From positions 14,998 through 78,997 of IMG/VR virus record IMGVR_UViG_3300046615_000401: a DNA stretch of 64,000 nucleotides, one strand, 5' to 3'. The position numbers and the translations under genes are program-made. Source of the DNA: a virus. Its lineage: Duplodnaviria; Caudoviricetes. The notes under the pieces were generated by a model, which saw only the letters and a list, made by a program, of their open reading frames with translations, ran no database searches and had not been told where the DNA came from. Below are positions 1 to 64,000 of the stretch, in pieces; within the stretch, counting starts at the first letter, position 1, and each line of letters starts with the position of its first letter.

Positions 1-592
1 CGCAGTACGGGCTTCGGACGCCAATGTGCAAGCACTCAAGGATGCCGAAGTCGAACGTAAAGACATCCGTGATGCCACCAAGCGCGCCAACGTGGTCCAG
101 AGTACCAAGCTGGCACTGAAGGAAGCCGGCAATCTGTACTCGGATGGCGTGTACAACGGCAGCCAGGCGCCTGATCTGATCAAAGAGATGGTCGCCTCGG
201 GTGTGGGTGACGACGCCAGTGAACGCCTGGCGATCTTGAAGCGCTTTGAAAAAGGCACGATGAAGATCAAGAGCCCCGATGGTAAAAGCGAAGTGGATGT
301 GCCTATCCCGCTGTCTGCCATGCGTGCTGCCATCCTGGGTTCCAAGGATCAAATCGTTAACTGGCGCAATCAAGGCTGGGCCAACGAAGCAGAAGCCAAC
401 TTGAAAAGTATTCTTCAATCAACCTACACCACGCAAGGGGCGAATGGTCAACAGGTTCTAGCCAACAAAGCAGCTGATGACTACTCGGCCTTCACTCAGA
501 CGCTGAAGAACGCGATCCAAGACCCGTTGATCAAGGGTGGTAATGGTAATCGGGGTACTGTACCACCGCCAACGATGCCAAAACGCCGATAA
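1..592 (+). CDS. C-terminal part of a virion structural protein upstream of vRNAP (N4 gp51-like position), 5'-truncated
   Basis: Frame is open from the window start to TAA at 590-592; same strand as and directly upstream of vRNAP, as in the N4 late operon. Confidence 0.7.
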   Translation, partial: AVRASDANVQALKDAEVERKDIRDATKRANVVQSTKLALKEAGNLYSDGVYNGSQAPDLIKEMVASGVGDDASERLAILKRFEKGTMKIKSPDGKSEVDVPIPLSAMRAAILGSKDQIVNWRNQGWANEAEANLKSILQSTYTTQGANGQQVLANKAADDYSAFTQTLKNAIQDPLIKGGNGNRGTVPPPTMPKRR

Positions 593-608
593 GCAGCTGT
601 TCTATGGC

Positions 609-646
609 AAAAAAGGTGGACTGGAGGAAACTTCGTCCACCTTTTT
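609..646. terminator. Intrinsic terminator-like hairpin, potentially bidirectional
   Basis: AAAAAAGGTGGAC...GTCCACCTTTTT stem with inner GGAG-GAAA-CTTC; followed by TATAAT at 650-655 upstream of the vRNAP start. Confidence 0.75.
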
Positions 647-683
647 CTATATAATCAAGACTTCCACTCCACCAGGATGCACC

Positions 684-3600
684 ATGGCCACTCTCGACCA
701 GATTCTTGACCAACACCTTGCTAAACAGAAGGAAGAAGCCGCTGGCGGCCTCAACCTGGACACCTACTTCGCTAACCGCTTCGGTGCCACAGCTGGTACG
801 GATAAAGTGGATGCTGTGCGGGCTGCAACCAAGGAAAAGGTGCAGAATCTGGAGTCCTTCCGGCAAGCACTGGCAATCAATCAGGAATCCAACCAGGCCG
901 CAGTAGAGGCCAACAAGCAAGCCTGGTCCACCCGTCTTGGCTTGGAAGCTGATGGTGTGGCCGGCACTGCAGTCAATCAAGCTGCCAGTCTGTACTCCGG
1001 TGGCTCACGTCTGCTGGGTAATGCAATTGCTCTGGCACCTAGTGCTACTGGTTTCGCCTATGAAGCTGTCATCCCCGAAGCAGAGAAGCAACTATACGGC
1101 CAGTACCAGATGTACAAGCGTACCAACACGGCCATCCCTCCGGAGATGGAAGCTGCCCTGAACCGCAAGGTATCCGGTGCCACTGAGGGTACCTCGCCGA
1201 CGGACGCTGCACGTTATCAAGCTGAAGCCGATGCCAATCCCGCCTCCCTGACCGTCAAGCAGGTCATGGAACGTACGGATTCCCTGCGTGGCATGGCCCG
1301 CAAGGTCAACGATTTCTTCGACAATTCCACTGCAGTGCAACAAGATCGGCGTGATGCCCTGTCCGCCGAGCTGGGCCAGGACTTCGCTGCTCGCTGGGGT
1401 AAAGTCACGCAAGGCTGGGACGAAGCCAAAAAGCACCAGTTCATGGCGGCCGGTGGCCACACGATCGAAGGAATCGCCGGTTTACTGCTGGGTGCCGGGG
1501 AAGCCGTGGTCAAGCATCCCATCGCCGCTACCGAGTACATCACTGAGAATGCTCCACAGATTGCGCTAGGCGCCTTGGGCCGGACCGGTATGGCCGCCAT
1601 GACATCCACCAATGTAGGCTATGCGGTAGATAACTACCAGCAAGGCATCGAGAACTACCAGAAAGCCCATCTAGGCCGTCTTCCAGCGGAGGATGTACGT
1701 CATACTATGGCCATTCAAGCGGCTTCATTGGCGGTGGCTGAGTATGTAGGTGAGTTGAACATCCTTCATGCTGGCAAGATGCTGGGTGGTGCTGAGAAAG
1801 CTACTGCTGAAGTAGCGGCTACCAGCGCAAAGCAATCCATCAAGAACACACTGGGTGCTGTTGCCCATGGTGGTATTGGTGAAGCAGCCACTGAGGGCTA
1901 TCAGACCTATATGGAGGGCCAAGTTACTGGCAAGCCAGCCAGTGCCGAGGACATCTACAAGGGTGCTGTCATCGGTGGTGTGGCGGGTGCCGGCCTGTCC
2001 GGAGGTCTGCATGGTATCCATGAAGCCTTGAAGGCAACGCCGGAACACGCTGCCCAACGTGCAGCCGAGGCTACCGACCATGCGACCTTCAACGCCGCGG
2101 CAGAAGCCAACGACCCGGCACCTTACCTGGATCCACAAAGTAAACAGTACGATCCCTCCGAAGCGGTAGGGGTATTGCTGAAACACGCCATGGGTGCGGA
2201 CGTGACGCCGGAAACCAAGCAGGCCAACCTGAAACAGGGGAGTGAGATCGTCGCCCAACTGGAAGAAGCACATGCCCAAGCACAGACGGTGGCAGCCACG
2301 CATACCCCGGAGGGTATCCAGGAAGCCAAGGACAATCTGGCTGCGGTACAGGAACAGCTGAAGACGGTCGATCCCACGGACAAAGCCAAGGTCACCCAGC
2401 TGAATTCACTGGTTTCGGATCTGACGGCCGAGGTAGCCGACCGCAGCGACAGCAAACAAGCCATGGCCGCTCGTACTGAGGCATCCAAACTGGAACGTCA
2501 GCTTAATACCGGTCGTGCTCGCCTTGAAGGGCTTACCACCATCGCTGAACCACAGGTTAAGCCAGCTGAAGTAGCTACTATGGTGGATGAAGCAGCCAAA
2601 CCAGAGGTAGCAGACCGGTTGATCAATCTGTCCATGACTCAACCGGATAGTATCACCGGTGAGCAGGCTACTAAGCTGGCAGAAGACAAGTCCAACACCT
2701 TCACCGATGAACAGCGTGCACACTTGCGCGCTTTCTCTGCTGCACGTATCGCTGAGAACCAGTTATCCACACAAAGCAAGGTATCTCAGGAAGTATTCTA
2801 CGGTTCGGCCAAGAATGTTGGCATGGCCCAGTACCGTGGCCGGATTGCTGCGGCAATTGCTGCCAATAACCAGAACACGGCGACGCGTCAGCTTGAACAG
2901 CTGCAGACCTTCGCCACCGACCACGCCAGCAAAGCTCAGGCTGCACGCCAAGCCATGCAGGGTGGCATGGGTAACCAGATCGTCAAGCTCACCAACGGCT
3001 CCGGCTGGACCGTGCTGCCCAAAGGGGAGAAGCTGGACAAGACCACCATGGATTCCAACGGCGCCCTGACCATGCAGTCCGGCCGGCTGGTGCAGGATAT
3101 CCAGAAGGAAGCCAAAGCCCTTGCCGCCACGGTGGCAGAGATGCAATCTGCTGTGAAGATTAAATTTGGCAACACGGTAAACCCTGTTGTACAATCCAAT
3201 CCTTCCGCAAAACAAACGACACTTCCCGGAAATATCAATAGCCCCAAGAATGAGGAGGAGTCCGCACGTCCAGAGCTTCGCCCTGAACCTCCTGCCGTCC
3301 GCACTCCTACTCTCTCCAGTAATAAGACGCAAACCAAGCAGACGTTTGAAGAACGTCAAGCTTTCAATGCCGCACAGGAAGAAATCGTGCGCAAAGCCAA
3401 CGCGGCTTACGCCGCCAAACAAGAAGCCAAGACAGCGAAGTCGGAAGCAGCGCAGCAACCAGCGGTGGTGAGCGCAGCGAACCCCGCGCCCGTTGCGGAG
3501 GCTGCGACGACTGAAGCGGGAGTAGAGAAGAAGGATAATATTTCTTCCCCTGCAGCCTCGCCAGCGTCGTCACCTGCCAGCCCTACGCTCGCTGACGCTC

Positions 3601-6600
3601 GCGGGGCTACGGTGCCTTCCTTGGCTTCGGCTGCGGCAACTGGTTTGAAGGTGTTTGAACAGGAACATGACAAGGCTGCCCCTTACACGGAACAGAACCT
3701 GATAGGTACCCAGTTCCAGCAGACTGCTGGCAGCGACACGGGTACGCTTCGTCCACTGGCTTCGGTGACGGATTTCCTGTCAGCCTTGAAAGCCAAGACC
3801 ACCAAGGTGTCGGACTTCGTCCAGCAAACCAGTGAACCGACTGCTGCACAACGTACCGTGCTGAAGGACTTCGCCCGTACTGCGGGTGACTGGTTTGCTA
3901 CCATCACCAGTAATCTGGTGCGTGGCAATAAGGGTTACGGCTATGAGGACATGATCCAGTTCCTGCTCAATGAGCAAGGGGATCTGGAGGAGAACACCAA
4001 GACAGCGATTGCTTATGCAGCCTACAGCTGGGTAGCAGAAGCGGCTTCCCGTCCATCGGAGAACAGCCCGGAAGAGATCAATCTGATTCTGGGTCGGGGT
4101 GAAGATGCCATTGTCAGCACCAAGGAAACCAACGCGCTGAAATATGTTGGTACCCGACAGAACGTGGTGGCCAACTCCCTGGGTCAACGGGTAGTCGCTG
4201 CGCTTGGCTTGAAGTCCTTGGCTTCCGCTCCGCGCAATCTACAGGCCGATCTGGAAGCATCGATCGGTGCCCACGCCATGAAGTTGCTGCTGGACCAAGG
4301 CATCCTGGTGCGTACCAGCATCAGTGGTAAGGAAATGGCGGAACTAACCGGTAAAGAATCCACTGACAGCAACGCCAAGTTCTACTTCCTCAAGCTGGCA
4401 CAAACGGACACCGGATTGCATCCGGCTGCCGAAGCCATCTACCAAGCCAGCAAGGGTACGCAGGGCATCCTCGACAAGCTGTTCGGGGTCGAACCAGCAT
4501 TGAAGGAACCGGGTACTGTACCGATCAAATCGACGCAGAAGACCACGCGCAATACCGACATGGCTATCCCCTCCGAGCTGGAAAAAATGGTGGCCAAGGA
4601 TGATGCCATCCCCAGCTTCGTGCGGGCTGACATGTACAACCTGGTGGGGCAGATCGATCCGGAGATCCTGCTGAAGATCGCCGGTAAGGAAGAAGTCACC
4701 GAAGACAGTGTGCACAAGGCTCGCCGCGCTTCGTTGCAAGCCAAGAACGATGGTCTACAACGGGAGTTGTCGCGCTTCATGGATTACGTCGGTCAGATGG
4801 GCCATGACGTGGCCATGTACTTCGAGCACTCTGTCTGGATGCAGCAGCGGGTGGGTATCGCCACCAACATGATCAATCCACAGACGTCGAAGATTCATCG
4901 GCACATGCTGTACCGGCAGAACTGGGAAACCAAGATCGCCATCAACGACGTCGATGTGATGACCAACTTCAAGCTGCGTGTCGCGGAAGGCTTGGGCGTC
5001 AAGACCGACAAGAAAAGCCAGGCCAAGGCACTCGCTGACCTTACTGGCTTACTGGCGAAGCCAGAGGTCAAAGGCGCCGTCAACGTGCTGGTCAAGTCCC
5101 TGGCCGGCACCAAGGATGGTACCTTGTCGGCCAATGAACAGCAGGTGCTGCTGGCTGGTGTCAAAGCCGGTGGCGAAGACATGCACTCGCTGGATGCGCT
5201 GATGGCACTGGCCCAGTTCACCCAAGCCAAGAAGGCAGGGGAGTCTCACTTCACCACGCAGATGATGGCCGAGGTGGATGGCGTCACCAACGGTCCGATG
5301 TTTACCAATCTGTTGCTGGGGGCGGCCAATACCGTGGGTGAGATGTACGCCTTGCTGAATCGGGGGGGTTTCTTCCAGCAAGGCAATCCGCACACCGAGT
5401 ACAACAACTGGCGGGATGCACCGGGCAACTTCGACCTGTATGAAAACACTGCCTTGCACATGACCCAGGCAGTCAATGCGGCTGGCTTCGATTCGGCCAC
5501 CATGGCTTCCTTGTACGCCTTCACCGGCGAGCTGGCAGACAAGAATGGGGCGGTGCAGAAAGCCGGCCGCAACATCATCAAGACGCCGTTGACGGCCATG
5601 GTGTTCGGCTCCTCGGTGAAGTCGGCGGTGGACAGTATGGCGGACAAGTTCATCGACAGCATCTACGCTGCCATCGAGGACAACGCCAAGGGAGCGAAAG
5701 GCGCCTTGAGCAGCACGGAGATCCTGGCCCATCTGGACATGCTGGGCGTGACTCTGCCAGCAGGAACCAACCTGATGGAGCATGAATTCAATGCTGCCCA
5801 GATCAAGACATTAAAAGGTATCTTCTCCGGTACATTGGGTAAGGCAGTCGAAGCCACCATGAAGCAGGACTTCGAGGTCTTCATCAGCCAGCGTACCCAG
5901 TTCAACCTGACGGCACAGACCACCTTCGCCGTGTACAACGCGGTGTACAGCAGCCTGCGCGAGAAGATGATCAACGATCTGATGGCGGAAGGCAAGCTGG
6001 CGGTCAACAAGACCACCGGCAAACCTATCCACGACCTGACCAATGCACAGGAAAAAGCCTTGCGCAAGCAGGTCGAAGCACTGGCACCGGTCATGCACTC
6101 GCCGATGTCCAAGGAATCTGGTGAGCTGAAAGCGGGTCTGCTGGTGGCCAAATCCGATCGAAAATTGTCCACCTCGCCGATCTACCAGAATACGGTGAAA
6201 TTTGGCCAGCCCTTCGCCGACAACGGCAGCAAGTCCACTGCTGTGCACGGCTACGAAGTCACGCCGACGGGTCCGGGTGTGGCCATGGTCCCGGTTAGCA
6301 TGCACTCGTCGGATAGTGCAGTATCGGCTCGTGCCAATCCAGACGGTAAAGCCCTCAACGTACACGATGCACAGGGTTCTGGTGTGGGTTCCATCCTGGC
6401 CACGGCGCAAGCCATGAACCAGGCTACCTGGGACACCATGCTGAATTATTCCCCTGCTGCGGAAGTGACAGCGGCTTTGCTGCGCACGGTACAAGGACTG
6501 GACGCCATGATACAGGCTGGCACTCTGCCGGACACGGCTCTGACCTTACTGGCTTCGTCCTTGGTGGACATGGCTGAAAAGCAGGGGATGTCGCCGGAGG

Positions 6601-9600
6601 GTGTGCTGCAAGTGCAAGCCATCCGCGCACAGGAGATGGCCTACAAGGCGGACAGCATGAAGCTGGATACCATGGCCACCATGCAGGCGATTAATCAATA
6701 TGCGATGGAAGGTGGTGCCTACGCTGTCACATCCGATAACCGGGCATCTGCGGCCTCGCTGCGCTCGGCACTGGCGCCCTCCTTATCGGCTGATGCCAGC
6801 GCGGCCCTGAACCGGGTCAGCGACAAGCTGGACGCTGCCATCAAAGCCGAGGTGGCCAAACGCGAAGGCAAGACTGTGGTGCCGGACACCGAGATGGATC
6901 CACAGGTGAAACCAGCCGGTAGTGTAGCCGAACTAGGTAAGTCGGCGATTGCCTCCGATCCCTTCCTGGTGGAGACGTTCAGCAAAACGCCTGTAATGGG
7001 CCTAGCAGAGGTCGCAGCCGCATTGCGTGTGTCGCTCAAGGGTGAGTTCAATCAACGCCTCCTGAGCGCTTTGGAGCGGGCTACGGGCTTTGACTTGACG
7101 GTGCGCTATGTCACGCCACAGACGGCACCGGCCGATCTGCTGGCCAAGGGGGATGACAAAGCCCGTGGCTGGTATGCCAGCAGCAATGGTGAGCAGGCGA
7201 TCTACGTGCTGTCACCAGAGTTCAAGTACTCCGGTTTGACCCCGGAACTGCTGCTGCATGAGCTGACCCATGCGGCCGTGGCCCGTACCATCGAGCAAGC
7301 CAAGATCGACGGCAAAGGGGATGCGTACGCACTGGTGAAGGAACTGGAAGAACTGCGTATGACGGCTGCCAAATATGTTGTGGCTAATCATTTACAAACC
7401 CAATTTAGTGCGGCAGTCGAGAACGTGCACGAACTGGTCAGCTGGGGGATGAGTAATCAGGAATTCCAGACCCAGGTGCTGGGTAAATTCCAGATGGCTT
7501 CGACTACCGGCAGCAATGCGCTGGTGTCGGGGATTAAGAGCTTCATTAACAAATTGGTGGGCTTGGTCTTTGGTAAGCAGAACGCTACCATGGCAACCGG
7601 GATGGGTGTGCTGATCTCTAATGTATCGGGGCTGTTCAATGCAGCAGCACAAACCAAAGACACGGCCAGCAAGGCTACGCTGGTGCTGAACCAGACCAAT
7701 ACGGGTGCAGCACAGAACAACCTGCGGGATCTGTCCACCATGGACATCCACAACGCCCTGGCACAGATGAACAGTGGCCAGGTAGTCAGCACCGGTTTCA
7801 GTGCCCACCTGCAGGATCTGCTGGGAGGGATTGTCACCAAGCTGCATGGTCCATTCGGTAGCTTCAAGGCTGCCATCATGGCGCAAACGGCCCAGACTCC
7901 GGAGCAGGTGTACCAGCATGCGCTGACTACCGGTGAAGCACCGTTCGCACTCGATGCTTTGGGGGCAGGTTTTGCCTTCACCCATCAGGAAGCCTTCGCT
8001 GCCGAGCAGGTCCAGGTCACGGTGCGCGAAGCAGTCAACGGCAAGGATGGCGTAACGTCGGTGGCCTATCGGGAACTGGCCAAGCTGTACGACGAAGTGC
8101 GCAGCAAGATCAAGGTGTCCGACTTCCATGGTGCGAATGTGTCGCCAGTGGAGATCGCTGAAGCCCAGGCGCTACATGACTTCATCTTCACGGTGAAGCT
8201 CGATGCCGACGGCAAGAGCGAATACCTGTCGCGCTTCGCTGCACTGGGCCTGGCCCATGAAGGCTTCAACACGGTGCTCGCTTCCATGGTGTCACGTAAT
8301 GCCAATGCCGCTTCGGCCATCAGCTTCAACGATCGGCTCAACAAGATCTTCGAGCAGATCCTGAACTGGTTCGCCGGCAAGATGACGCACACCAAAGAAG
8401 GCATGACGGCCGAAACCAAGCTGACCAAGCTGGTGGAACAGCTGGTGCAGATCGAAGTCAAGAAACGCATGGTGGTGCAGGCACGTATCCAGCTGTTGAC
8501 ACCAATCGAGGAAGCGGTGGATACGCTGGCCAAAGGTGCCCGTGCCAAGCTGGATGCTTTTGTCCGCCAGCCTTACTTCAAGCAGCATACGAATGGCTTT
8601 GTACGCGGTGGTACAGCCCTTCTGTCGGCCTATGCGAATGAGCGCACGGATGCGGTGTTGGAAGGTTTCATGCGCCTGCGCGATCAAACCATCGGAGGTC
8701 AGCTGGGGATTGCTGCCTCGCTCGTCAATGAGTTCCGCGGCTCCAATACCAGCAACCTGATCTTCCATTACCTGCTGCGCATCACCAAGCATATTGAAGG
8801 TACCCGCAAGGACATCATCACCGGTACTGGCAAGATCGTGCTGGGCTCCTTCGCCAATGAGGGGGATGACCTGAACGCGCAGCACAAGGATGCCATCAGT
8901 GCAGTGTTCCTGCGGACTGACATGAGCAGTCTGCTGACCCACTACAACATGGATGAGCTGGCTAAGCTGGTGGGGGATCCACAGGCAGTGCAGACGGAGA
9001 TCAATCGCTTTGAAGCCAACCTGACCAGCAAATTCCGTCGCTACTATGTGAATGCAGCCAAGACCCTAGCCTACTACAAAGCCACTGGCGAAGTGCGCAG
9101 TGCCCATCTGGTGATGAATGCCGGGAACATCGCTCGCTTGTACGGTACCGGCTACAAGACCCAGGTGAGTGAAGCCGAAGCCAAGCAGGCCGAGAAGATC
9201 ATTGATCCCTTGGTTTCCTTGTATGCGCTGCTTTACTCCCGTGAGGATCACCTGAGTAAAGCCCAGGAAGTATTGAAGGCGGAAGCTGCACGCACGGATG
9301 GTGGCAACGGTGTGGAGATGGTACTGAAGACCCATCAACGCCTGGTCGAACAGTCGCAGAAGCTGCTGTTCGATGATGCTGCACCACTGCACATGAAAGG
9401 CTACACCACCGAGATCTACGATCCCTTCATGGATGTGGTCACGGCCGGCGTGGATGAAGGTGCCGATCTGGTCCTGCAGGGTTACACCCAAGGTTCGGCA
9501 CTGAGCCATGATGTGGCCGATCCCCTGGCCGAGGAAAAGCACATCTACTACCTGCGCGATGGTGGCATGCAGCGTCGTGTCACGGGTACGCTAAGCTTCA

Positions 9601-11204
9601 CCGGCATGAAGGCCAAGGGTACCCGTGTGCACAACGGCAATGTCTCGCCGCTGTCCTACTCTGGTCAGCTGAATGCCTCCAACATGGCGGCCATCGGTAA
9701 CAACAAGCAGGCAGCCATCCAGGACATGTTCACTGCCACTGGTTTCGATCCGTCGAGTGTCAAGCAGAATCATCTGGCACCGGTGCTGAATGCCAACGGC
9801 GATGTGGTCAACTACCGTTACCTGATGAGCGAGTTGACCAAGGACACTTTGCTGGACCGGGACAACCGGCCGGAGAAAATCCTGGGCGCCATGGCGGGTT
9901 CCGTCTTCGACAAGGTCAGCTCCAAGGAGCAGAACCGCAAGGTGGTGGAAGCGCTGCATGAGCAATACACCTACGAGTTCGCCAGCAATCCTGCTGCCTA
10001 CCTGACCGTGGGACCGAAGAGTACTGATCCGCAGCTGAGAGAAATCTGGCAGCTGCTGCCGGCCTCCACCAAGCAGGCGGTCAATGAGATCTGGGGTACC
10101 GAGGGTATGAAGGTGCGCAGCGATCTGCTGGACATCAACTTCGGTTACCGCAAGGTGAGTGTGGCCGATGCCTTCACCGAGCAGGCTGCACAACGCAACT
10201 TCGTGCAGGGCATGTTCGTGGAATTCATGACCATGGCTTTCCATGAGAAAGCGCAGCTGCGCACCCGGCAAGTGGAGGATATCTGGCAGGCCGTGGTGAA
10301 AGCCACCAAGGGCAACCTGGTGGTGAAATCCTGGTCCACCATGAGCGGCAACCTGCGTTCCAACTGGTCGCAGCTGTTGTTGATGGGTGTTAATCCGGTG
10401 GCCATCGCCCGTAGTCACCGGGTAGCCTTCAAGGGTGCCTGGGCCTACAAGAAGGATAGCGAACTGCTGTTCAACCTACAGCACCAGATTGAGGTGGGGC
10501 ATATCCTGCCAGGACAAACCAAGGCGGACATTGAACACCAGATTAAACGCCTGCAGGACAGCATCAACCGCAATCCGGTCAAGCCGCTAATCGATGCTGG
10601 CTTGATGCCGACCATCGTGGAGGATGTGGCAGCTGATGACGACATCTATTCGTACAAGTCGAAGTTCGTCAAGGGCACTGAGAAGTTCACCAGCAAGCTC
10701 AACCCACAGGTGGTAGGACTAGGTAAGTTCTTGCTGATGACGGAAGACAGTTCAGCCTTCAAGGTGATGAGCTACGCCACGCAGATCTCCGACTTCCTGG
10801 CCCGCTACACGCTGTACGAGCACATGACCAGCAAGAAGAATCCGATGGACCATGAGGATGCGATTCAACTGGCCTCGGATGCCTTCATCAACTACGACGT
10901 CCCGACACACCGGATGGTCCAGTATGCTAATGATTCGGGGTTGGTGATGTTTACCAAGTACTACATGCGCATCCAGAAGATGCTGGGTAAGATCTACAAG
11001 GAACACCCTGGCCGGGTAATTGCGTTGCTGGCTGCTGAACGGATGATCGGGGATCAGCCGACAGTGATCGATTCGGGGATGCTGCATCGCTGGGGCAACC
11101 CGCTGAACCTGGGCGCCCTGGACTATCCTGGCTCACTGGATTCCTTGACCACGGTGAAGCTGCTCAGTAGTCCCTTCCGCGGAGGTGGTAACCCAGCGGA
11201 TTAA
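684..11204 (+). CDS. Virion-encapsidated RNA polymerase (N4 gp50-like), ~3506 aa
   Basis: Size; motif A EVDGVTNG, motif B RNIIKTPLTAMVFG, motif C NVHDA, NPQTSKIHR; no Cys from the Met at 684; start reassigned from 537 to 684 (AGGA upstream). Confidence 0.97.
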   Translation: MATLDQILDQHLAKQKEEAAGGLNLDTYFANRFGATAGTDKVDAVRAATKEKVQNLESFRQALAINQESNQAAVEANKQAWSTRLGLEADGVAGTAVNQAASLYSGGSRLLGNAIALAPSATGFAYEAVIPEAEKQLYGQYQMYKRTNTAIPPEMEAALNRKVSGATEGTSPTDAARYQAEADANPASLTVKQVMERTDSLRGMARKVNDFFDNSTAVQQDRRDALSAELGQDFAARWGKVTQGWDEAKKHQFMAAGGHTIEGIAGLLLGAGEAVVKHPIAATEYITENAPQIALGALGRTGMAAMTSTNVGYAVDNYQQGIENYQKAHLGRLPAEDVRHTMAIQAASLAVAEYVGELNILHAGKMLGGAEKATAEVAATSAKQSIKNTLGAVAHGGIGEAATEGYQTYMEGQVTGKPASAEDIYKGAVIGGVAGAGLSGGLHGIHEALKATPEHAAQRAAEATDHATFNAAAEANDPAPYLDPQSKQYDPSEAVGVLLKHAMGADVTPETKQANLKQGSEIVAQLEEAHAQAQTVAATHTPEGIQEAKDNLAAVQEQLKTVDPTDKAKVTQLNSLVSDLTAEVADRSDSKQAMAARTEASKLERQLNTGRARLEGLTTIAEPQVKPAEVATMVDEAAKPEVADRLINLSMTQPDSITGEQATKLAEDKSNTFTDEQRAHLRAFSAARIAENQLSTQSKVSQEVFYGSAKNVGMAQYRGRIAAAIAANNQNTATRQLEQLQTFATDHASKAQAARQAMQGGMGNQIVKLTNGSGWTVLPKGEKLDKTTMDSNGALTMQSGRLVQDIQKEAKALAATVAEMQSAVKIKFGNTVNPVVQSNPSAKQTTLPGNINSPKNEEESARPELRPEPPAVRTPTLSSNKTQTKQTFEERQAFNAAQEEIVRKANAAYAAKQEAKTAKSEAAQQPAVVSAANPAPVAEAATTEAGVEKKDNISSPAASPASSPASPTLADARGATVPSLASAAATGLKVFEQEHDKAAPYTEQNLIGTQFQQTAGSDTGTLRPLASVTDFLSALKAKTTKVSDFVQQTSEPTAAQRTVLKDFARTAGDWFATITSNLVRGNKGYGYEDMIQFLLNEQGDLEENTKTAIAYAAYSWVAEAASRPSENSPEEINLILGRGEDAIVSTKETNALKYVGTRQNVVANSLGQRVVAALGLKSLASAPRNLQADLEASIGAHAMKLLLDQGILVRTSISGKEMAELTGKESTDSNAKFYFLKLAQTDTGLHPAAEAIYQASKGTQGILDKLFGVEPALKEPGTVPIKSTQKTTRNTDMAIPSELEKMVAKDDAIPSFVRADMYNLVGQIDPEILLKIAGKEEVTEDSVHKARRASLQAKNDGLQRELSRFMDYVGQMGHDVAMYFEHSVWMQQRVGIATNMINPQTSKIHRHMLYRQNWETKIAINDVDVMTNFKLRVAEGLGVKTDKKSQAKALADLTGLLAKPEVKGAVNVLVKSLAGTKDGTLSANEQQVLLAGVKAGGEDMHSLDALMALAQFTQAKKAGESHFTTQMMAEVDGVTNGPMFTNLLLGAANTVGEMYALLNRGGFFQQGNPHTEYNNWRDAPGNFDLYENTALHMTQAVNAAGFDSATMASLYAFTGELADKNGAVQKAGRNIIKTPLTAMVFGSSVKSAVDSMADKFIDSIYAAIEDNAKGAKGALSSTEILAHLDMLGVTLPAGTNLMEHEFNAAQIKTLKGIFSGTLGKAVEATMKQDFEVFISQRTQFNLTAQTTFAVYNAVYSSLREKMINDLMAEGKLAVNKTTGKPIHDLTNAQEKALRKQVEALAPVMHSPMSKESGELKAGLLVAKSDRKLSTSPIYQNTVKFGQPFADNGSKSTAVHGYEVTPTGPGVAMVPVSMHSSDSAVSARANPDGKALNVHDAQGSGVGSILATAQAMNQATWDTMLNYSPAAEVTAALLRTVQGLDAMIQAGTLPDTALTLLASSLVDMAEKQGMSPEGVLQVQAIRAQEMAYKADSMKLDTMATMQAINQYAMEGGAYAVTSDNRASAASLRSALAPSLSADASAALNRVSDKLDAAIKAEVAKREGKTVVPDTEMDPQVKPAGSVAELGKSAIASDPFLVETFSKTPVMGLAEVAAALRVSLKGEFNQRLLSALERATGFDLTVRYVTPQTAPADLLAKGDDKARGWYASSNGEQAIYVLSPEFKYSGLTPELLLHELTHAAVARTIEQAKIDGKGDAYALVKELEELRMTAAKYVVANHLQTQFSAAVENVHELVSWGMSNQEFQTQVLGKFQMASTTGSNALVSGIKSFINKLVGLVFGKQNATMATGMGVLISNVSGLFNAAAQTKDTASKATLVLNQTNTGAAQNNLRDLSTMDIHNALAQMNSGQVVSTGFSAHLQDLLGGIVTKLHGPFGSFKAAIMAQTAQTPEQVYQHALTTGEAPFALDALGAGFAFTHQEAFAAEQVQVTVREAVNGKDGVTSVAYRELAKLYDEVRSKIKVSDFHGANVSPVEIAEAQALHDFIFTVKLDADGKSEYLSRFAALGLAHEGFNTVLASMVSRNANAASAISFNDRLNKIFEQILNWFAGKMTHTKEGMTAETKLTKLVEQLVQIEVKKRMVVQARIQLLTPIEEAVDTLAKGARAKLDAFVRQPYFKQHTNGFVRGGTALLSAYANERTDAVLEGFMRLRDQTIGGQLGIAASLVNEFRGSNTSNLIFHYLLRITKHIEGTRKDIITGTGKIVLGSFANEGDDLNAQHKDAISAVFLRTDMSSLLTHYNMDELAKLVGDPQAVQTEINRFEANLTSKFRRYYVNAAKTLAYYKATGEVRSAHLVMNAGNIARLYGTGYKTQVSEAEAKQAEKIIDPLVSLYALLYSREDHLSKAQEVLKAEAARTDGGNGVEMVLKTHQRLVEQSQKLLFDDAAPLHMKGYTTEIYDPFMDVVTAGVDEGADLVLQGYTQGSALSHDVADPLAEEKHIYYLRDGGMQRRVTGTLSFTGMKAKGTRVHNGNVSPLSYSGQLNASNMAAIGNNKQAAIQDMFTATGFDPSSVKQNHLAPVLNANGDVVNYRYLMSELTKDTLLDRDNRPEKILGAMAGSVFDKVSSKEQNRKVVEALHEQYTYEFASNPAAYLTVGPKSTDPQLREIWQLLPASTKQAVNEIWGTEGMKVRSDLLDINFGYRKVSVADAFTEQAAQRNFVQGMFVEFMTMAFHEKAQLRTRQVEDIWQAVVKATKGNLVVKSWSTMSGNLRSNWSQLLLMGVNPVAIARSHRVAFKGAWAYKKDSELLFNLQHQIEVGHILPGQTKADIEHQIKRLQDSINRNPVKPLIDAGLMPTIVEDVAADDDIYSYKSKFVKGTEKFTSKLNPQVVGLGKFLLMTEDSSAFKVMSYATQISDFLARYTLYEHMTSKKNPMDHEDAIQLASDAFINYDVPTHRMVQYANDSGLVMFTKYYMRIQKMLGKIYKEHPGRVIALLAAERMIGDQPTVIDSGMLHRWGNPLNLGALDYPGSLDSLTTVKLLSSPFRGGGNPAD

Positions 11205-45166: not shown

Positions 45167-46330
45167 TTATTCCGTATGGGTTTTGTAATGGATGACCTTG
45201 CCGAACGGTGCCGTCCACTCTGGGTTGTCATGGATTATCCACAGTACACTGGCACTGCAGTGTTCCCGGTCATGGCAGAAGCCACCATCGCTAAAGATCA
45301 TCGCCACCTTGGGCTTGGTCTTCTCGATGTGGTCCAGCACCTCTGTGATGTTGGTGCCCCCCCTGCCAGTGAACTTCACGTTGGCCAGGTCCATGACATT
45401 GCGCACCGTAGTGATCGACTTGATGTGCGTGTCAAACTGACCCAGTTCGATCTTCTTTGGCTTCATCATCTTCAAGATGCCGTGCAGCTCAGAGATGAAG
45501 CGCAAGAAGTCTTCATCGGTTTCCGAACCGGAGATATCCATCCATGCCTGGAAGTCGACCATGGCGCCTTCGCTCCACAGGGAGGGCAGGTAGTGCTGCG
45601 GGAAGAAACGCCGATTCGGTCGCTTCCAGGAATAGTCGAACTTGCCCAGTTCCTTGAGCCATTTGCGCACGATGGTTTGCCATGGCAGTTTAGGATTCAG
45701 CAGCTGGTCCAGGTACAGATCAATACCCCCCGGTACCGAACCAGGAGGCTCATTGGCCATCTTGGACATGGTGGCAGCACGGATGATGATGTCGTCGATG
45801 GCTTTCTTCAGCGTTCGATCATCCATGTCAGGCGCATCCCGCAGATCGTCCATGCCGCATTCTGGCTTGGGCATAGTCGGCATCTGCTGCTGTTCCGCGT
45901 GCAGGATGTCGTACACCTGCTCGGTGCTCATGTCCGTGAAGCGCGGATCTGCCAAGCGGAAGCCAGGTAGCTTGAATCCCCTGGCTTCGAGCATCAGATT
46001 AATCACATGGTCGCCGGCAGCATTCCACAGCTTGTGGTCACGGTTACCCTTGCGGGCGCCGATGTGCATATACGCCGGATGACAGGCTTCATGCACCAGC
46101 ACACCGATGCGCTCATCCGGAGTCAGGCTGTGGAAGAAGTTGGGATTGAAGCCTACCTTCAAGCCAGTGGTCCAGGCAGTCGGATGGGTATCGTCCCAGA
46201 CAAACTTCATGCTGAACAGGATGGTGGTGAAGAAGGCACTGCCGGGCTTTTGCATCAGTCCGATCTTGGCCTGATTCAGCAGTTTTTTCAGGGAGACGTC
46301 ATCGTCATAGTTGACAGCTTGGGCTTGCAT
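45167..46330 (-). CDS. Metallopeptidase-like (HExxH) + vWA domain protein (N4 gp25-like, DUF2201)
   Basis: TAWTTG...FNPNF...LVHEACH...WNAAGDHVIN; vWA DISGS, GRGGT, FSDG. Confidence 0.88.
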   Translation of the reverse strand: MQAQAVNYDDDVSLKKLLNQAKIGLMQKPGSAFFTTILFSMKFVWDDTHPTAWTTGLKVGFNPNFFHSLTPDERIGVLVHEACHPAYMHIGARKGNRDHKLWNAAGDHVINLMLEARGFKLPGFRLADPRFTDMSTEQVYDILHAEQQQMPTMPKPECGMDDLRDAPDMDDRTLKKAIDDIIIRAATMSKMANEPPGSVPGGIDLYLDQLLNPKLPWQTIVRKWLKELGKFDYSWKRPNRRFFPQHYLPSLWSEGAMVDFQAWMDISGSETDEDFLRFISELHGILKMMKPKKIELGQFDTHIKSITTVRNVMDLANVKFTGRGGTNITEVLDHIEKTKPKVAMIFSDGGFCHDREHCSASVLWIIHDNPEWTAPFGKVIHYKTHTE

Positions 46331-46362
46331 GGTGACCTCGGAGGGTATAAGGGGAAGGGAAT

Positions 46363-46671
46363 TCAACCGGGCGCGGCGACGCGCATGCCAGTCTTGAATT
46401 CGATAATGTCTTTAAGGTCTACCCCACAGTCTTCCATCATGGAGGCTTCGTGTTCGGCCAGGAAGGCTTGCAGGCGCTCGATACGCAGCCTGTGGTACTC
46501 GGTGGTCCGGATGCTGATCTGCATGCGCAAATCCGCGTATTCTGCACGAGTTTGCGACTCAAGTACATGCAGCTGTGCATGTTTTAGTTCGGCCAGAGCC
46601 ACTTGTTGTGGACTAGGCATCCAGCGTTGGGTCCAGCGGTCAAACCAGCTGGGTAATTGACCGATGGTCAT
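46363..46671 (-). CDS. Hypothetical protein 102 aa
   Basis: GGAG RBS; P(S)PQQVAL.EL..AQL..LE..T..EYA...YH..RIERL pattern. Confidence 0.65.
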   Translation of the reverse strand: MTIGQLPSWFDRWTQRWMPSPQQVALAELKHAQLHVLESQTRAEYADLRMQISIRTTEYHRLRIERLQAFLAEHEASMMEDCGVDLKDIIEFKTGMRVAAPG

Positions 46672-46690
46672 GAGAATCTCCGATAAATGG

Positions 46691-46710
46691 AAAAGGCCGC
46701 ATCAGCGGCC
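46691..46710 (-). terminator. Intrinsic terminator
   Basis: Minus strand GGCCGC-TGAT-GCGGCC-TTTT. Confidence 0.65.
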
Positions 46711-46735: not shown

Positions 46736-46897
46736 TTAGTACGACAGGGCCGTGGTCAGTGTCTTGTAGTCCTGCTGCTTACGTTCTTCCGCAACCTGTT
46801 TGACATGCCGTGCTTCGGCTTCAGCCGGCGTCAAGGGGGTAGTGTTGCAGGCAGCCAGGCTGGCCAGGATCAACAGCAGGGGGAGGATCTTTTTCAT
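46736..46897 (-). CDS. 53-aa lipoprotein (not in ORF track)
   Basis: MKKILPLLLILASLAA-C: basic N-terminus, hydrophobic core, canonical LAAC lipobox. Confidence 0.8.
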   Translation of the reverse strand: MKKILPLLLILASLAACNTTPLTPAEAEARHVKQVAEERKQQDYKTLTTALSY

Positions 46898-46923: not shown

Positions 46924-47448
46924 TTACTTGCTTGGTTTAATGCGGGGCTTGACGTGCGTGAGACTGTCCACCAGGTGATCCAGGCTGTGTGCTACATGTT
47001 TTTCGCCTGGTTCGGTGGTACTCGTATACACACGATAGACCAGTTCAGCACATGGATTAACAGGCACTCCAATTGCTGCAGCATTTCGGCTGACAATATC
47101 GGCACTGATGCCCGCTTCCAGCATGGCTTTCAGCTTCTCGTAGCGCTGAGCATTACGCACGATCTCCATGGCAACCTCTTTGGTTTCCTGGATTCGTTTA
47201 AGCTCTGGCAGTGGATTGAATAACTCCGGTGCCAAACGCCATACGATCTGCATCTTGCGCATGGCTTCGGCTTTGTTCTTGTACACACTGCGGTCATCAG
47301 ATTCCTTGACCCACACACCAGAAGGTATATGGGTGATCATCACACCGGTTTCCTGCCGGAGTATCCAGCCAGATGGTGGTGTGGTACGGTAAGTATCGAT
47401 ACGGATATCGGCCAGGTTCATTTCCACAAAATTGTCATGCGGTTCCAT
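46924..47448 (-). CDS. Peptide-chain-release-factor-like domain protein lacking GGQ
   Basis: DIRIDTYR....VMITHIPSGVWV....RSVYKNKAEAM matches RF domain 3; GGQ position reads PPSGW. Confidence 0.75.
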   Translation of the reverse strand: MEPHDNFVEMNLADIRIDTYRTTPPSGWILRQETGVMITHIPSGVWVKESDDRSVYKNKAEAMRKMQIVWRLAPELFNPLPELKRIQETKEVAMEIVRNAQRYEKLKAMLEAGISADIVSRNAAAIGVPVNPCAELVYRVYTSTTEPGEKHVAHSLDHLVDSLTHVKPRIKPSK

Positions 47449-47749
47449 GGATGTCCTCATGGGTCAGGTCCATCAGCAAGCACACCGGACGGTTAACGTC
47501 CTGCTCGAAGATGACGTTGAACTTCTCACCGGGGAAGTAGGTGGCCACCAGCAGCAGCTCACCAAAGGTTTCATCGGTGACCTCGGCCACTACGGCGCCC
47601 CAGCGCGGATTGACCGTCATGAAGCGCGCCACATTGGGCAGGCATTCGCTGATGCGGGAACCCCTGGTGATCCTCACCACTGGCTTGGCTTTGCCGCGGC
47701 CCGGTGAGGGACCATAGTAGGTGGTTTTGATGGTACGTTCGCTGTTCAT
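47435..47749 (-). CDS. Hypothetical protein 104 aa
   Basis: AGGA RBS before MNSERT; overlaps the HNH gene stop. Confidence 0.6.
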   Translation of the reverse strand: MNSERTIKTTYYGPSPGRGKAKPVVRITRGSRISECLPNVARFMTVNPRWGAVVAEVTDETFGELLLVATYFPGEKFNVIFEQDVNRPVCLLMDLTHEDIHGTA

Positions 47750-48132: not shown

Positions 48133-48495
48133 TTAAGTGAGGATGGGTGTGACATGCATGATCTTGCTGATCATGTAAGCCACGCCGGCAATCTTGTGTT
48201 CATGCTTAGGCTCAAACGATTTCATGTGCGCCATGACGCATTGGAAGGTGGCCGGACCATCTTCACGGAAGCCAGGATTGAAAATAATTTCCCCGTCAGG
48301 TGCTGGATGACCAACGAACATGGCATCAGCGATGCGTGTGTAAATATTGGTCTGCCAGAACTCGGCGGGGATCTCCTCTTCTGGTGGTAGTAAGCGGGTG
48401 GTACCCCATACCGCTTCTGGCTTGGTGATGCTGTCGATGTCGGCCTGGGTGATACTCCAGGCTGCCTGTTCCACTGGCTTGGTTTTGCGGCTCAT
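48133..48495 (-). CDS. Conserved phage hypothetical protein (SFEPKHEHK motif)
   Basis: LLPPEEEIPAEF...SFEPKHEHKIAGVAY. Confidence 0.75.
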   Translation of the reverse strand: MSRKTKPVEQAAWSITQADIDSITKPEAVWGTTRLLPPEEEIPAEFWQTNIYTRIADAMFVGHPAPDGEIIFNPGFREDGPATFQCVMAHMKSFEPKHEHKIAGVAYMISKIMHVTPILT

Positions 48496-49148
48496 TTGGT
48501 TTCCTTTATGACGAGTCGATTTGCTAGATTTCGCAAGTCAGTAGCACACGCAGGGGATTCGTCTTTACGCTCCATATAATCCGCCAAGCTTTTAAGCATA
48601 CGGATGTCTATGGCTGTTACCTGCCCTTGGCTGCTACCGGCAGCGTCTAAGACCGTGCGGAATGCCTGCACAAGCTCCGCGCCATCCACCATGTCCCAAG
48701 CGCCGTGACCGAGTCCTACCAAATCGGTGACTTGTTCGATTACCTGCTCATCACTCAGCGTGGCCGGTGGAACTGGCGCGGCAGCGGCGAGACAAGCAGC
48801 AACGATATCGTAGGTAGTGTCGCTACCAGATTGCCGACACTGGTACACAATTGCATCAATCTGCGACTTGCTCAGCGTGGCCGGTTCTGGCGCATCGACT
48901 TGAAGGGCCGTGTAAAGTGGCGTGACAGATACCGATGCCGATACTTTGGCTTCGCCCTGCTGCGCCTGGAGGGCTGCGCGGAGGTTCCACGCGGCGATAG
49001 CAGAATCCTTGCTGGACTCCTTTCCAGACGGTCCTATGGTTCCGCAGTCAGCGCACTGGCAATAACTGTCAGTAGGCTCGTTGATGTGCTCATAGGGCTT
49101 AACATTTGCGCTGCCGCAGAAAGGGCAGTTTTCGATATGCATGCTCAT
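48492..49148 (-). CDS. Lar-like restriction-alleviation domain protein
   Basis: CPFCG...C..CG..GP...AIAAWN.R zinc-finger pattern in the first ~60 aa. Confidence 0.75.
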   Translation of the reverse strand: MSMHIENCPFCGSANVKPYEHINEPTDSYCQCADCGTIGPSGKESSKDSAIAAWNLRAALQAQQGEAKVSASVSVTPLYTALQVDAPEPATLSKSQIDAIVYQCRQSGSDTTYDIVAACLAAAAPVPPATLSDEQVIEQVTDLVGLGHGAWDMVDGAELVQAFRTVLDAAGSSQGQVTAIDIRMLKSLADYMERKDESPACATDLRNLANRLVIKETK

Positions 49149-50456: not shown

Positions 50457-51527
50457 TTAGAACAGGTCTACTGCATGCTCAGCCAGCAGCTTGAGCATAT
50501 CCGGATTGTCTGCCAGCGAGCGGTCCCGGCCCAGGGTCATCCTGATGCAGACGATCTGGAATTCCAAGGGCAGGCGTTTCACATACTTCAACAGCTGGCC
50601 GATGTTGATGGGTGTGGCATGGTGGGCCATGGAGCCAGTGATAGCAAACAGAATGCTGGGCTCGTTGGAGACACGTATCTGCTCCGGCGCCGCAATGATG
50701 TCAGCGATGGTGGGCAGGTTAGTGTAGATGTCGCAGAACAGGATCAGCTCACGCGCCACACCTTCACTGAGCATGCCGGACAAGGCAGGCAGGGTATCGG
50801 TGTCATTGACGTCATTCTGGACGAGATAGTCATGCGCGAATTCCCAGGTGCGGGGCGCAGCGTAAGTACGGTCGCAGTGGTCCGGCTGGAAGGTGTACAG
50901 CAGACCGGGCTTGTACTCGATAAAGCTGACGATGCGGTGATCGAACTTCATCTTGGAGGCATGCTTCGACCATTCGATCGGGCACACTTCCAGGTCGATG
51001 TGGACGATCCGGCTTTGCAGGGCGGTGCTCATCTGCTCGACGATGGCACCATCGGTTTCCAGGTTACCTGCGGCCACCACAGCGACTTTGGAATGCAGAT
51101 GGTACTTGCCCACCATCCGGTCCAGCACGATCTTGTAGGCGGCTGCCTGCACCGCTACCGAGGCCGAATTGAATTCATCCAGGAATAGCAACCAACCAGC
51201 GTAGGGTTTGCCGGTGACTGGATTGATCGGCAGCTCATCTCCTTCAATTGGGAAGGTGTCCATGGGCACATAGCCGGCACGGCCGTTGTGGATTTGCGGG
51301 AAGCCAAGGAGGTCAGTCGGGTCGCATTGCGACAGCCGCAGGTCGATCAGGAACAGGTTGTACTCGGCGGCAATCTGCTTGACGATGGCACTCTTGCCGA
51401 TGGCCGGTGAACCATGGATCATCGGGACTTTCTTTGCTTTGATCAGTTTGGTGACCAGGCGAATGGCCTGGCTGATCTTGACGCTCAGATGGGTGACGGT
51501 ACTTTCTTGCTGCTGGTTCTTAGCCAT
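50457..51527 (-). CDS. AAA+ ATPase, MoxR/dynein-related (N4 gp24-like)
   Basis: GSPAIGKS, DLRLSQ.DP.DL.G.P, LFLDEFN, AGN, STALQSR. Confidence 0.92.
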   Translation of the reverse strand: MAKNQQQESTVTHLSVKISQAIRLVTKLIKAKKVPMIHGSPAIGKSAIVKQIAAEYNLFLIDLRLSQCDPTDLLGFPQIHNGRAGYVPMDTFPIEGDELPINPVTGKPYAGWLLFLDEFNSASVAVQAAAYKIVLDRMVGKYHLHSKVAVVAAGNLETDGAIVEQMSTALQSRIVHIDLEVCPIEWSKHASKMKFDHRIVSFIEYKPGLLYTFQPDHCDRTYAAPRTWEFAHDYLVQNDVNDTDTLPALSGMLSEGVARELILFCDIYTNLPTIADIIAAPEQIRVSNEPSILFAITGSMAHHATPINIGQLLKYVKRLPLEFQIVCIRMTLGRDRSLADNPDMLKLLAEHAVDLF

Positions 51528-63929: not shown

Positions 63930-64000
63930 CCATCATGCAGACATAGCAAGGTGGGGTGGGTAGGGCTAAGAATTCTTTTTCGTAAGCATAGGGGGGGGGG

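Follow-up and report, generated by a model that had tools for sequence, protein, structure and literature searches.

A phage-encoded release-factor domain 3 protein with a Gly-aromatic loop in place of the GGQ motif

Domain 3 of the release factors (RFs) is among the most conserved bacterial protein modules, and its GGQ motif is regarded as universal. We found that an uncultured N4-like phage (Schitoviridae) encodes a 174-amino-acid protein, P0001, in which an RF domain 3 carries Ser-Gly-Trp at the position of GGQ, and that P0001 belongs to a group of phage proteins in which an aromatic residue occupies the position of the glutamine. These features suggest that P0001 probably binds rather than cuts.

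The window, by which we mean the whole 64,000-nucleotide stretch of DNA that we analyzed, makes up the right-hand part of a 78,997-bp virus record whose ends carry direct terminal repeats of 127 bp. It includes an open reading frame (ORF) of 3555 amino acids at 537..11204 (plus strand), with the size and position expected for an N4-type virion-encapsidated RNA polymerase, together with genes for a family-A DNA polymerase, a Dda-like helicase, a DUF2201 metallopeptidase/VWA protein and a MoxR-like ATPase. The closest cultured relatives show only about 51% DNA-polymerase identity, and a near-identity DNA search of the phage collection gave no match. No tRNA genes were found in this genome. At the end of the record (G000:C1, about 63990..64000 of the window), about 11 G residues follow the 127-bp terminal repeat region; this run is possibly an assembly or sequencing artefact.

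The gene for P0001 lies in a run that encodes, in order, an HNH endonuclease, a 104-amino-acid protein (g104), the RF-like protein and a 53-amino-acid lipoprotein, and that is closed by a terminator-like hairpin. The features of this region are:

46685..46710, minus strand: terminator-like GC hairpin with six G-C pairs and a T-rich tail (consensus scan; pattern match only)
46736..46897, minus strand: downstream gene for the 53-amino-acid lipoprotein (lipobox signal, Pfam LPAM_1 E 3e-4; synteny)
46924..47448, minus strand: coding sequence of the RF-like protein, 174 amino acids plus stop (ORF list; identical to the 174-amino-acid P0001 in the public collection)
46927..47214, minus strand: C-terminal module, residues 79-174 (AF2 models, alignment A4, P0076)
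47215..47436, minus strand: N-terminal RF-1 (release-factor domain 3) fold, residues 5-78 (Pfam, PHROG, PDB, AF2, Foldseek, VIA-align)
47365..47373, minus strand: codons TCT-GGC-TGG for S26-G27-W28, the Trp codon being 47365..47367 (HMMER alignment to RF2, class comparison, sequence)
47435..47749, minus strand: upstream gene g104, 104 amino acids, no family (ORF list, synteny)
47454..47458, minus strand: Shine-Dalgarno-like GAGGA with a 5-nt spacer to ATG 47448 (read from sequence)

The full ORF spans 46924..47460 (minus strand), and its translation is exactly the one quoted in the first-pass annotation of this DNA. If translation began instead at the more distal ATG 47460, the protein would have 178 amino acids; the start is likely ATG 47448. 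The GAGGA element sits within the 3'-terminal part of g104; this upstream gene and the RF-like coding sequence overlap by 14 nt, and the HNH/g104 junction overlaps as well (HNH stop/g104 start, ATGA). P0001 has three full-length homologues, P0007, P0008 and P0009.

The N-terminal part of P0001 is related to RF domain 3, with matches far stronger than expected by chance. Pfam PF00472 (RF-1) matched residues 11-72 of the 178-amino-acid ORF with an E value of 6.4e-9 and a score of 36.2 bits, only just above the gathering cut-off of 35 bits, and PHROG 20323 ('RF-1 domain') matched with an E value of 3.6e-17. A phmmer search against the PDB retrieved E. coli RF2 (residues 229-293, E 2e-11) and RF1 (E 4e-8). 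The AF2 model of the protein (pLDDT 84) lays out the RF-1 domain as three beta strands, a helix at residues 55-72 and a short LAPELF helix. When this model was aligned with VIA-align to domain 3 of RF1, RF2, mtRF1 and PrfH, Z scores of 8-8.9 were obtained; superposition on RF domain 3 (Foldseek/VIA-align) gave an rmsd of about 3 A over 72 residues, and Foldseek returned an E value of 1e-5 and a TM score of 0.80 against the isolated RF2 domain. In the HMMER alignment, Y-R-T-T-P-P-S-G-W lies opposite Y244-R-T-S-G-A-G250-G251-Q252 of RF2, so that S26-G27-W28 faces G250-G251-Q252; a one-residue gap opposite H253 follows, and the loop is one residue shorter. The GGQ that is invariant in RF1/RF2 and kept in ArfB/ICT1-type rescue factors is absent from the catalytic loop of P0001. 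The first-pass annotation, made by eye, had read this gene as an RF domain with its GGQ replaced, followed by a different C-terminal domain (residues about 79-174), and had named the RF-1 fold as the feature to be checked. The Pfam, PHROG, PDB and model-based comparisons bear out all of these points.

To collect relatives we ran phmmer exhaustively over 1.84 billion representatives, which gave 670 matches, and we compared the classes among the 145 best anchorable of these. GGQ is present in 98 of the 145 representatives and absent from the other 47. At the Gln position of the latter, Trp (32), Phe (11) or Tyr (2) is found in 45 sequences, with a single Leu and a single His, and the preceding residue is Gly in 36 of 47 and Ala in 7 of 47. 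The loop of this non-GGQ class is one residue shorter. Its loop positions R, S, G, G, G, Q, N, T, S and A, which are 97-100% conserved in the 98 GGQ-class sequences, are down to 20-45%, whereas the scaffold motifs VRITHxPxG and RSxHxNxxxA are still 85-100% conserved. P0001 shares the traits of this class, namely the RF-1 fold, an aromatic residue at the Gln position and a shortened loop (PHROG 20323; alignments A1 and A2).

We then asked how the non-GGQ sequences group in a tree from which the loop columns were excluded; with 56 columns only, its resolution is low. The non-GGQ label needs 6 changes on this tree, versus 39 in shuffles, and an AU test did not reject a single clade holding together all 46 non-GGQ sequences in the tree (p-AU 0.73). 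The nearest rows to P0001 are all non-GGQ. As judged from these alignments and this tree, a single origin of the group is consistent with the data, and the loss of GGQ is a family trait rather than the decay of one copy. The proposal that P0001 is a catalytically dead mimic is extended by these results: the GGQ-less RF domain 3 stands, but the protein is not simply a 'dead' copy, as a conserved Gly-aromatic replacement runs through the clade.

Cultured carriers of the clade are Pseudomonas phage 73 and other Septimatrevirus members (GASAW) and ZZ1-like phages of Acinetobacter (HSNW or ARRW). A profile search of a 5.8-billion-protein set with alignment A2 was dominated by canonical RF1 and RF2 and is uninformative on the distribution of the clade. 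GGQ-bearing short RF-1 proteins are also present in viral contigs. Some clade members consist of only 64-78 amino acids, so that the domain by itself must be enough for function. Among ten long members compared with Pfam, only RF-1 was matched, and their fused regions match no Pfam family. Some members from the viral contigs L012, L022 and L024, with Q or F where the Gln would align (SQM, SGF), have the RF-like domain as their C-terminal part, preceded by an N-terminal stretch that bears the motif YRVLxxFxVTDxxxxHAxKKLLxAGxRG; the domain is thus shuffled among different phage modules. The T4-like viral contig L028 (168 kb) carries a tRNA with the amber-reading CUA anticodon at 5194-5268 (ARAGORN) and, about 700 nt downstream within a tRNA array, a 78-amino-acid RRW-type clade member (5980-6216). 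Likewise, ZZ1 p0148 adjoins tRNA-Trp and tRNA-Pro. We considered a linkage of the RF-like gene to tRNA genes and rejected it: although tRNA arrays surround the short relatives in T4-like phages, the genome studied here is devoid of tRNA genes.

The C-terminal module of P0001 comes after a conserved LAPELF turn. In the AF2 models it folds as a 30-residue helix, three beta strands and a short helix, and the long helix bears a conserved RY(R/E)KLK motif (alignment A4). The module is common to P0007, P0008 and P0009 and stands alone in P0076 (94 amino acids). Searches with the whole model, with the module alone and against BFVD gave no convincing fold match for it. T7 Gp1.2, the best match to the whole model (Z 6.1), the best match to the module modelled alone (Z 4.4), the dsRBD-like and hibernation-factor-like folds that it also matched (Z 3-4), and the BFVD matches (best E 0.055) all fall below a meaningful level and were set aside.

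The DUF2201 metallopeptidase/VWA gene (45167..46366, minus strand) and the MoxR-like AAA ATPase gene (50457..51527, minus strand) flank a variable block of ~4 kb. Among the N4-like relatives, L076 carries the same gene run with a 171-amino-acid version of the RF-like protein, and the version in L073 is a 122-amino-acid GGW form whose C-terminus differs; g104 and the RF-like and lipoprotein genes are missing from L074 and L075. In its variable block L073 has extra genes of 97, 65 and 152 amino acids, and L074 and L075 have fewer genes. The lipoprotein gene accompanies the RF-like gene, and g104 adjoins it, in the window, L073 and L076. The RF-like protein shares only 43% identity with its counterpart in L005/L076, compared with 85-87% for HNH and g104, and DNA identity drops at the gene border from about 85% to 45-68%. 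The GC3 of the RF-like gene is 0.55, versus 0.73-0.77 for its neighbours, with the same trend in L076 and L073. The patchy presence, the divergence and the low GC3 together indicate that the RF-like gene is an exchangeable, fast-diverging accessory gene.

The neighbour g104 is well conserved in this N4-like lineage, with 33 homologues at 55-90% identity, and searches of Pfam, PHROG, PADLOC and Atlas gave no match for it. We rejected it as an obligate partner or antitoxin: in L077, L078, L079 and L080, g104 precedes unrelated small genes or directly the DUF2201 gene. PADLOC found no match among six genes of this stretch, and Atlas searches gave sub-threshold leads only. Four genes upstream of the RF-like gene, at 48492..49148 (minus strand), lies a gene for a 218-amino-acid protein with an N-terminal Lar restriction-alleviation zinc-ribbon (PF14354 E 1e-8; PHROG 599). 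Its proximity suggests that the stretch between the replication genes collects host-interaction genes.

K57 and K59 of P0001, the equivalents of K282 and K284 in helix alpha-7 of RF2, are both kept, and these positions are basic in 83-100% of the clade. In RF2, K282 and K289 face the acceptor arm of the P-tRNA (PMC6742477). The VRITH motif, however, reads VMITH in P0001 (Met37), at a position that is K or R in 93% of the clade and in 100% of GGQ-class sequences. The mean net charge of the 72-residue domain is +0.5 in the non-GGQ clade versus +3.7 in the GGQ class, with P0001 at +1, and the lower positive charge of the clade argues against strong rRNA binding. Residues 113-174 of P0001 have a net charge of +1 and a pI of about 8.2.

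[quoted passage not shown] To our knowledge, domain 3 has two known docking sites only, PrmC and the A site/PTC of the 50S subunit; we prefer the ribosomal one, as PrmC is reported to need a closed, whole RF1 and to hydrogen-bond the Gln. [quoted passage not shown] The PTC would then be occupied without peptide release, which would put P0001 in competition with RF1, RF2 or rescue factors, or let it hold ribosomes. The variable C-terminal module may add affinity or specificity for each phage's version. The phage might benefit from damped termination or rescue, from host shut-off, or from the protection of ribosomes or tRNA ends from attack.

What is known of RF catalysis fits with an absence of hydrolysis. 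The GGQ loop (RF2 residues 245-258) lies beside A76 of the P-site tRNA and is held by A2602; hydrolysis is catalyzed by the backbone amide of the Gln, not by its side chain; and a GAQ motif instead of GGQ renders RF1 and RF2 inactive and leaves RF1 locked on the ribosome (PMC6742477). Because GAQ is already inactive, the Ser in place of the first Gly in P0001 is expected to abolish catalysis. More generally, hydrolysis is unlikely because the first Gly is replaced, the loop is shortened and the conservation of the loop is lost. The conserved Gly-aromatic pair instead points to a putative new contact. Several observations speak against a ribosomal target: the drop in charge across the clade, the VMITH change, and the lack in P0001 of codon-reading domains and of an ArfB-like basic tail. 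If the site is ribosomal, the bare members of 64-78 amino acids would bind with low affinity. The scaffold may also be conserved simply because the fold requires it.

The same observations bear on the other explanations. A possible but doubtful one is that the partner is not ribosomal: a protein of the host or of the phage, or the 3' end of a free tRNA (a component of a defence or toxin system, for instance), that recognizes, or has come to recognize, the shape of domain 3. The Gly-aromatic loop would form the contact, and the ribosome would play no part. The positive charge lost in the clade, the Arg lost from VRITH in P0001 and the very short members that are the bare domain only are in keeping with such a partner, as are the accessory status, fast divergence and low GC3 of the gene, which a conflict gene would be expected to show, and the Lar-like restriction-alleviation gene in the same stretch. 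Yet no candidate partner was found, PADLOC gave no match, g104 is not an obligate neighbour and the fused regions of the long members match no Pfam family. We consider it improbable that P0001 inhibits PrmC (HemK) or serves as its decoy. In that case the NPPY pocket, where the GGQ glutamine normally fits, would take up the aromatic residue, with less methylation of RF1 and RF2 and weaker termination as the outcome. That pocket is common to N6-adenine methyltransferases and accepts planar groups, and loss of prmC cuts RF activity 3-4 fold (PMC3152332). A bare domain could suffice for this role, and weaker termination would be helpful to the short T4-like Acinetobacter relatives in tRNA arrays, one of them beside a CUA tRNA. 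PrmC, however, is reported to need a closed, whole RF1 and to hydrogen-bond the Gln (PMC3152332), whereas P0001 lacks domains 2/4 and the Gln; nor is the benefit evident for an N4-like phage whose genome has no tRNA genes. Titration of PrmC thus looks the weakest of the activities that the first-pass annotation had proposed.

It is more improbable still that P0001 continues to hydrolyse peptidyl-tRNA, as a rescue factor of the ArfB kind that uses the backbone amide at the Trp position, although database labels such as 'peptide chain release factor' imply such an activity. The catalytic role of the backbone amide rather than the side chain (PMC6742477) would allow it; moreover, the second Gly is kept in 36 of the 47 clade members, and GGQ-bearing short RF-1 proteins exist in phages. 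Against this, the first Gly is Ser in P0001 and variable across the clade, the loop is shorter by one residue, the other invariant loop residues are all lost, and GAQ in place of GGQ is alone enough to inactivate RFs (PMC6742477). P0001 also has neither a basic tail nor a codon-reading domain, and its NCBIfam scores for prfA, prfB and prfH are 33-42 bits, against cut-offs of 167-423.

Our literature search found no paper describing GGQ-less phage RF domains, in agreement with the earlier suspicion that such proteins are undescribed. The survey of release-factor evolution by Burroughs and Aravind in 2019 makes no mention of phage or Gly-aromatic forms (PMC6514570). PHROGs and GenBank label the genes of the clade by domain name only, and the clade is apparently large and unstudied; the labels 'peptide chain release factor' and 'peptidyl-tRNA hydrolase' on its genes are probably wrong. 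New here are the N4-like carrier, the new C-terminal module, the pattern of presence, absence and divergence, and the class-wide statistics. The recurrent presence of an aromatic residue where the Gln would stand points to these proteins as natural, genetically encoded ligands of a domain-3 binding site, which is most plausibly the PTC. If they are such ligands, these small proteins would be new tools or leads for controlling termination, rescue or stalling, and would represent a new layer of phage control over host translation. As a speculation that we would not yet lean on, the Gly-aromatic clade may comprise unrecognized phage translation factors, minimal mimics of release factors that place an aromatic residue into the PTC (the A-site cleft/A76 region) to block or retune release or rescue during infection, with exchangeable C-terminal modules, fast-evolving through host conflict, that set the target state.

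Among known systems, P0001 most clearly recalls domain 3 of RF2 and RF1, which it resembles in fold (Z 8-9), in sequence (47% identity to E. coli RF2 over about 60 residues), in the motifs DxRID, (V)xITHxPxG and RSxxxNKxxA, and in the basic residues of helix alpha-7. It differs in having SGW where RF2 has GGQH, with a loop one residue shorter; in lacking the PCRF and codon-recognition domains (2/4), with 174 amino acids versus about 360; and in being phage-encoded with an unrelated C-terminal module. PF03462 gave no match in P0001, in which only residues 11-72 match RF-1 by Pfam. The scores for the RF1/RF2 equivalogs fall far short of their cut-offs (TIGR00019, 42.4 bits versus 423; TIGR00020, 40 versus 370), as does that for PrfH (TIGR03072, 32.9 bits versus 166.65), and the RtcB neighbour that is a trait of PrfH was not found among the g104, lipoprotein, HNH endonuclease and DUF2201 genes. 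ArfB (YaeJ), ICT1 and C12orf65 (mtRF-R) likewise have a GGQ-type domain freed from codon-reading domains and provided with a C-terminal extension, and C12orf65 (Z 6.9-7.6) and YaeJ (Z 6.2) are structural matches; those proteins, however, keep GGQ and are hydrolases. ArfB contains an extra insertion (its chain residues 6-100 align to residues 6-75 of our model), and its basic tail fills the empty mRNA channel, whereas the tail of P0001 is predicted to be a nearly neutral, folded alpha/beta module. Archaeo-eukaryotic Dom34/Pelota and mitochondrial MRPS35 have also lost the catalytic Gln and kept a ribosome-associated fold (PMC6514570), and thus provide a precedent for binding without hydrolysis. 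Dom34, though, has its own unrelated fold, MRPS35 is a structural ribosomal protein, and neither has a conserved aromatic residue replacing the Gln. Members of the same clade as P0001 are found in PHROG 20323, Pseudomonas phage 73 ORF037 (164 amino acids, ...GASAW...) and Acinetobacter phage ZZ1 p0148 (76 amino acids, ...HSNW...). The phage types differ, being N4-like here versus Septimatrevirus and T4-like; domain identity is only 36-52%; and the C-terminal part is another one in ORF037 and missing from the ZZ1 protein. Nevertheless, both are phage-encoded and share with P0001 the Trp at the Gln position, the shortened loop and the same scaffold.
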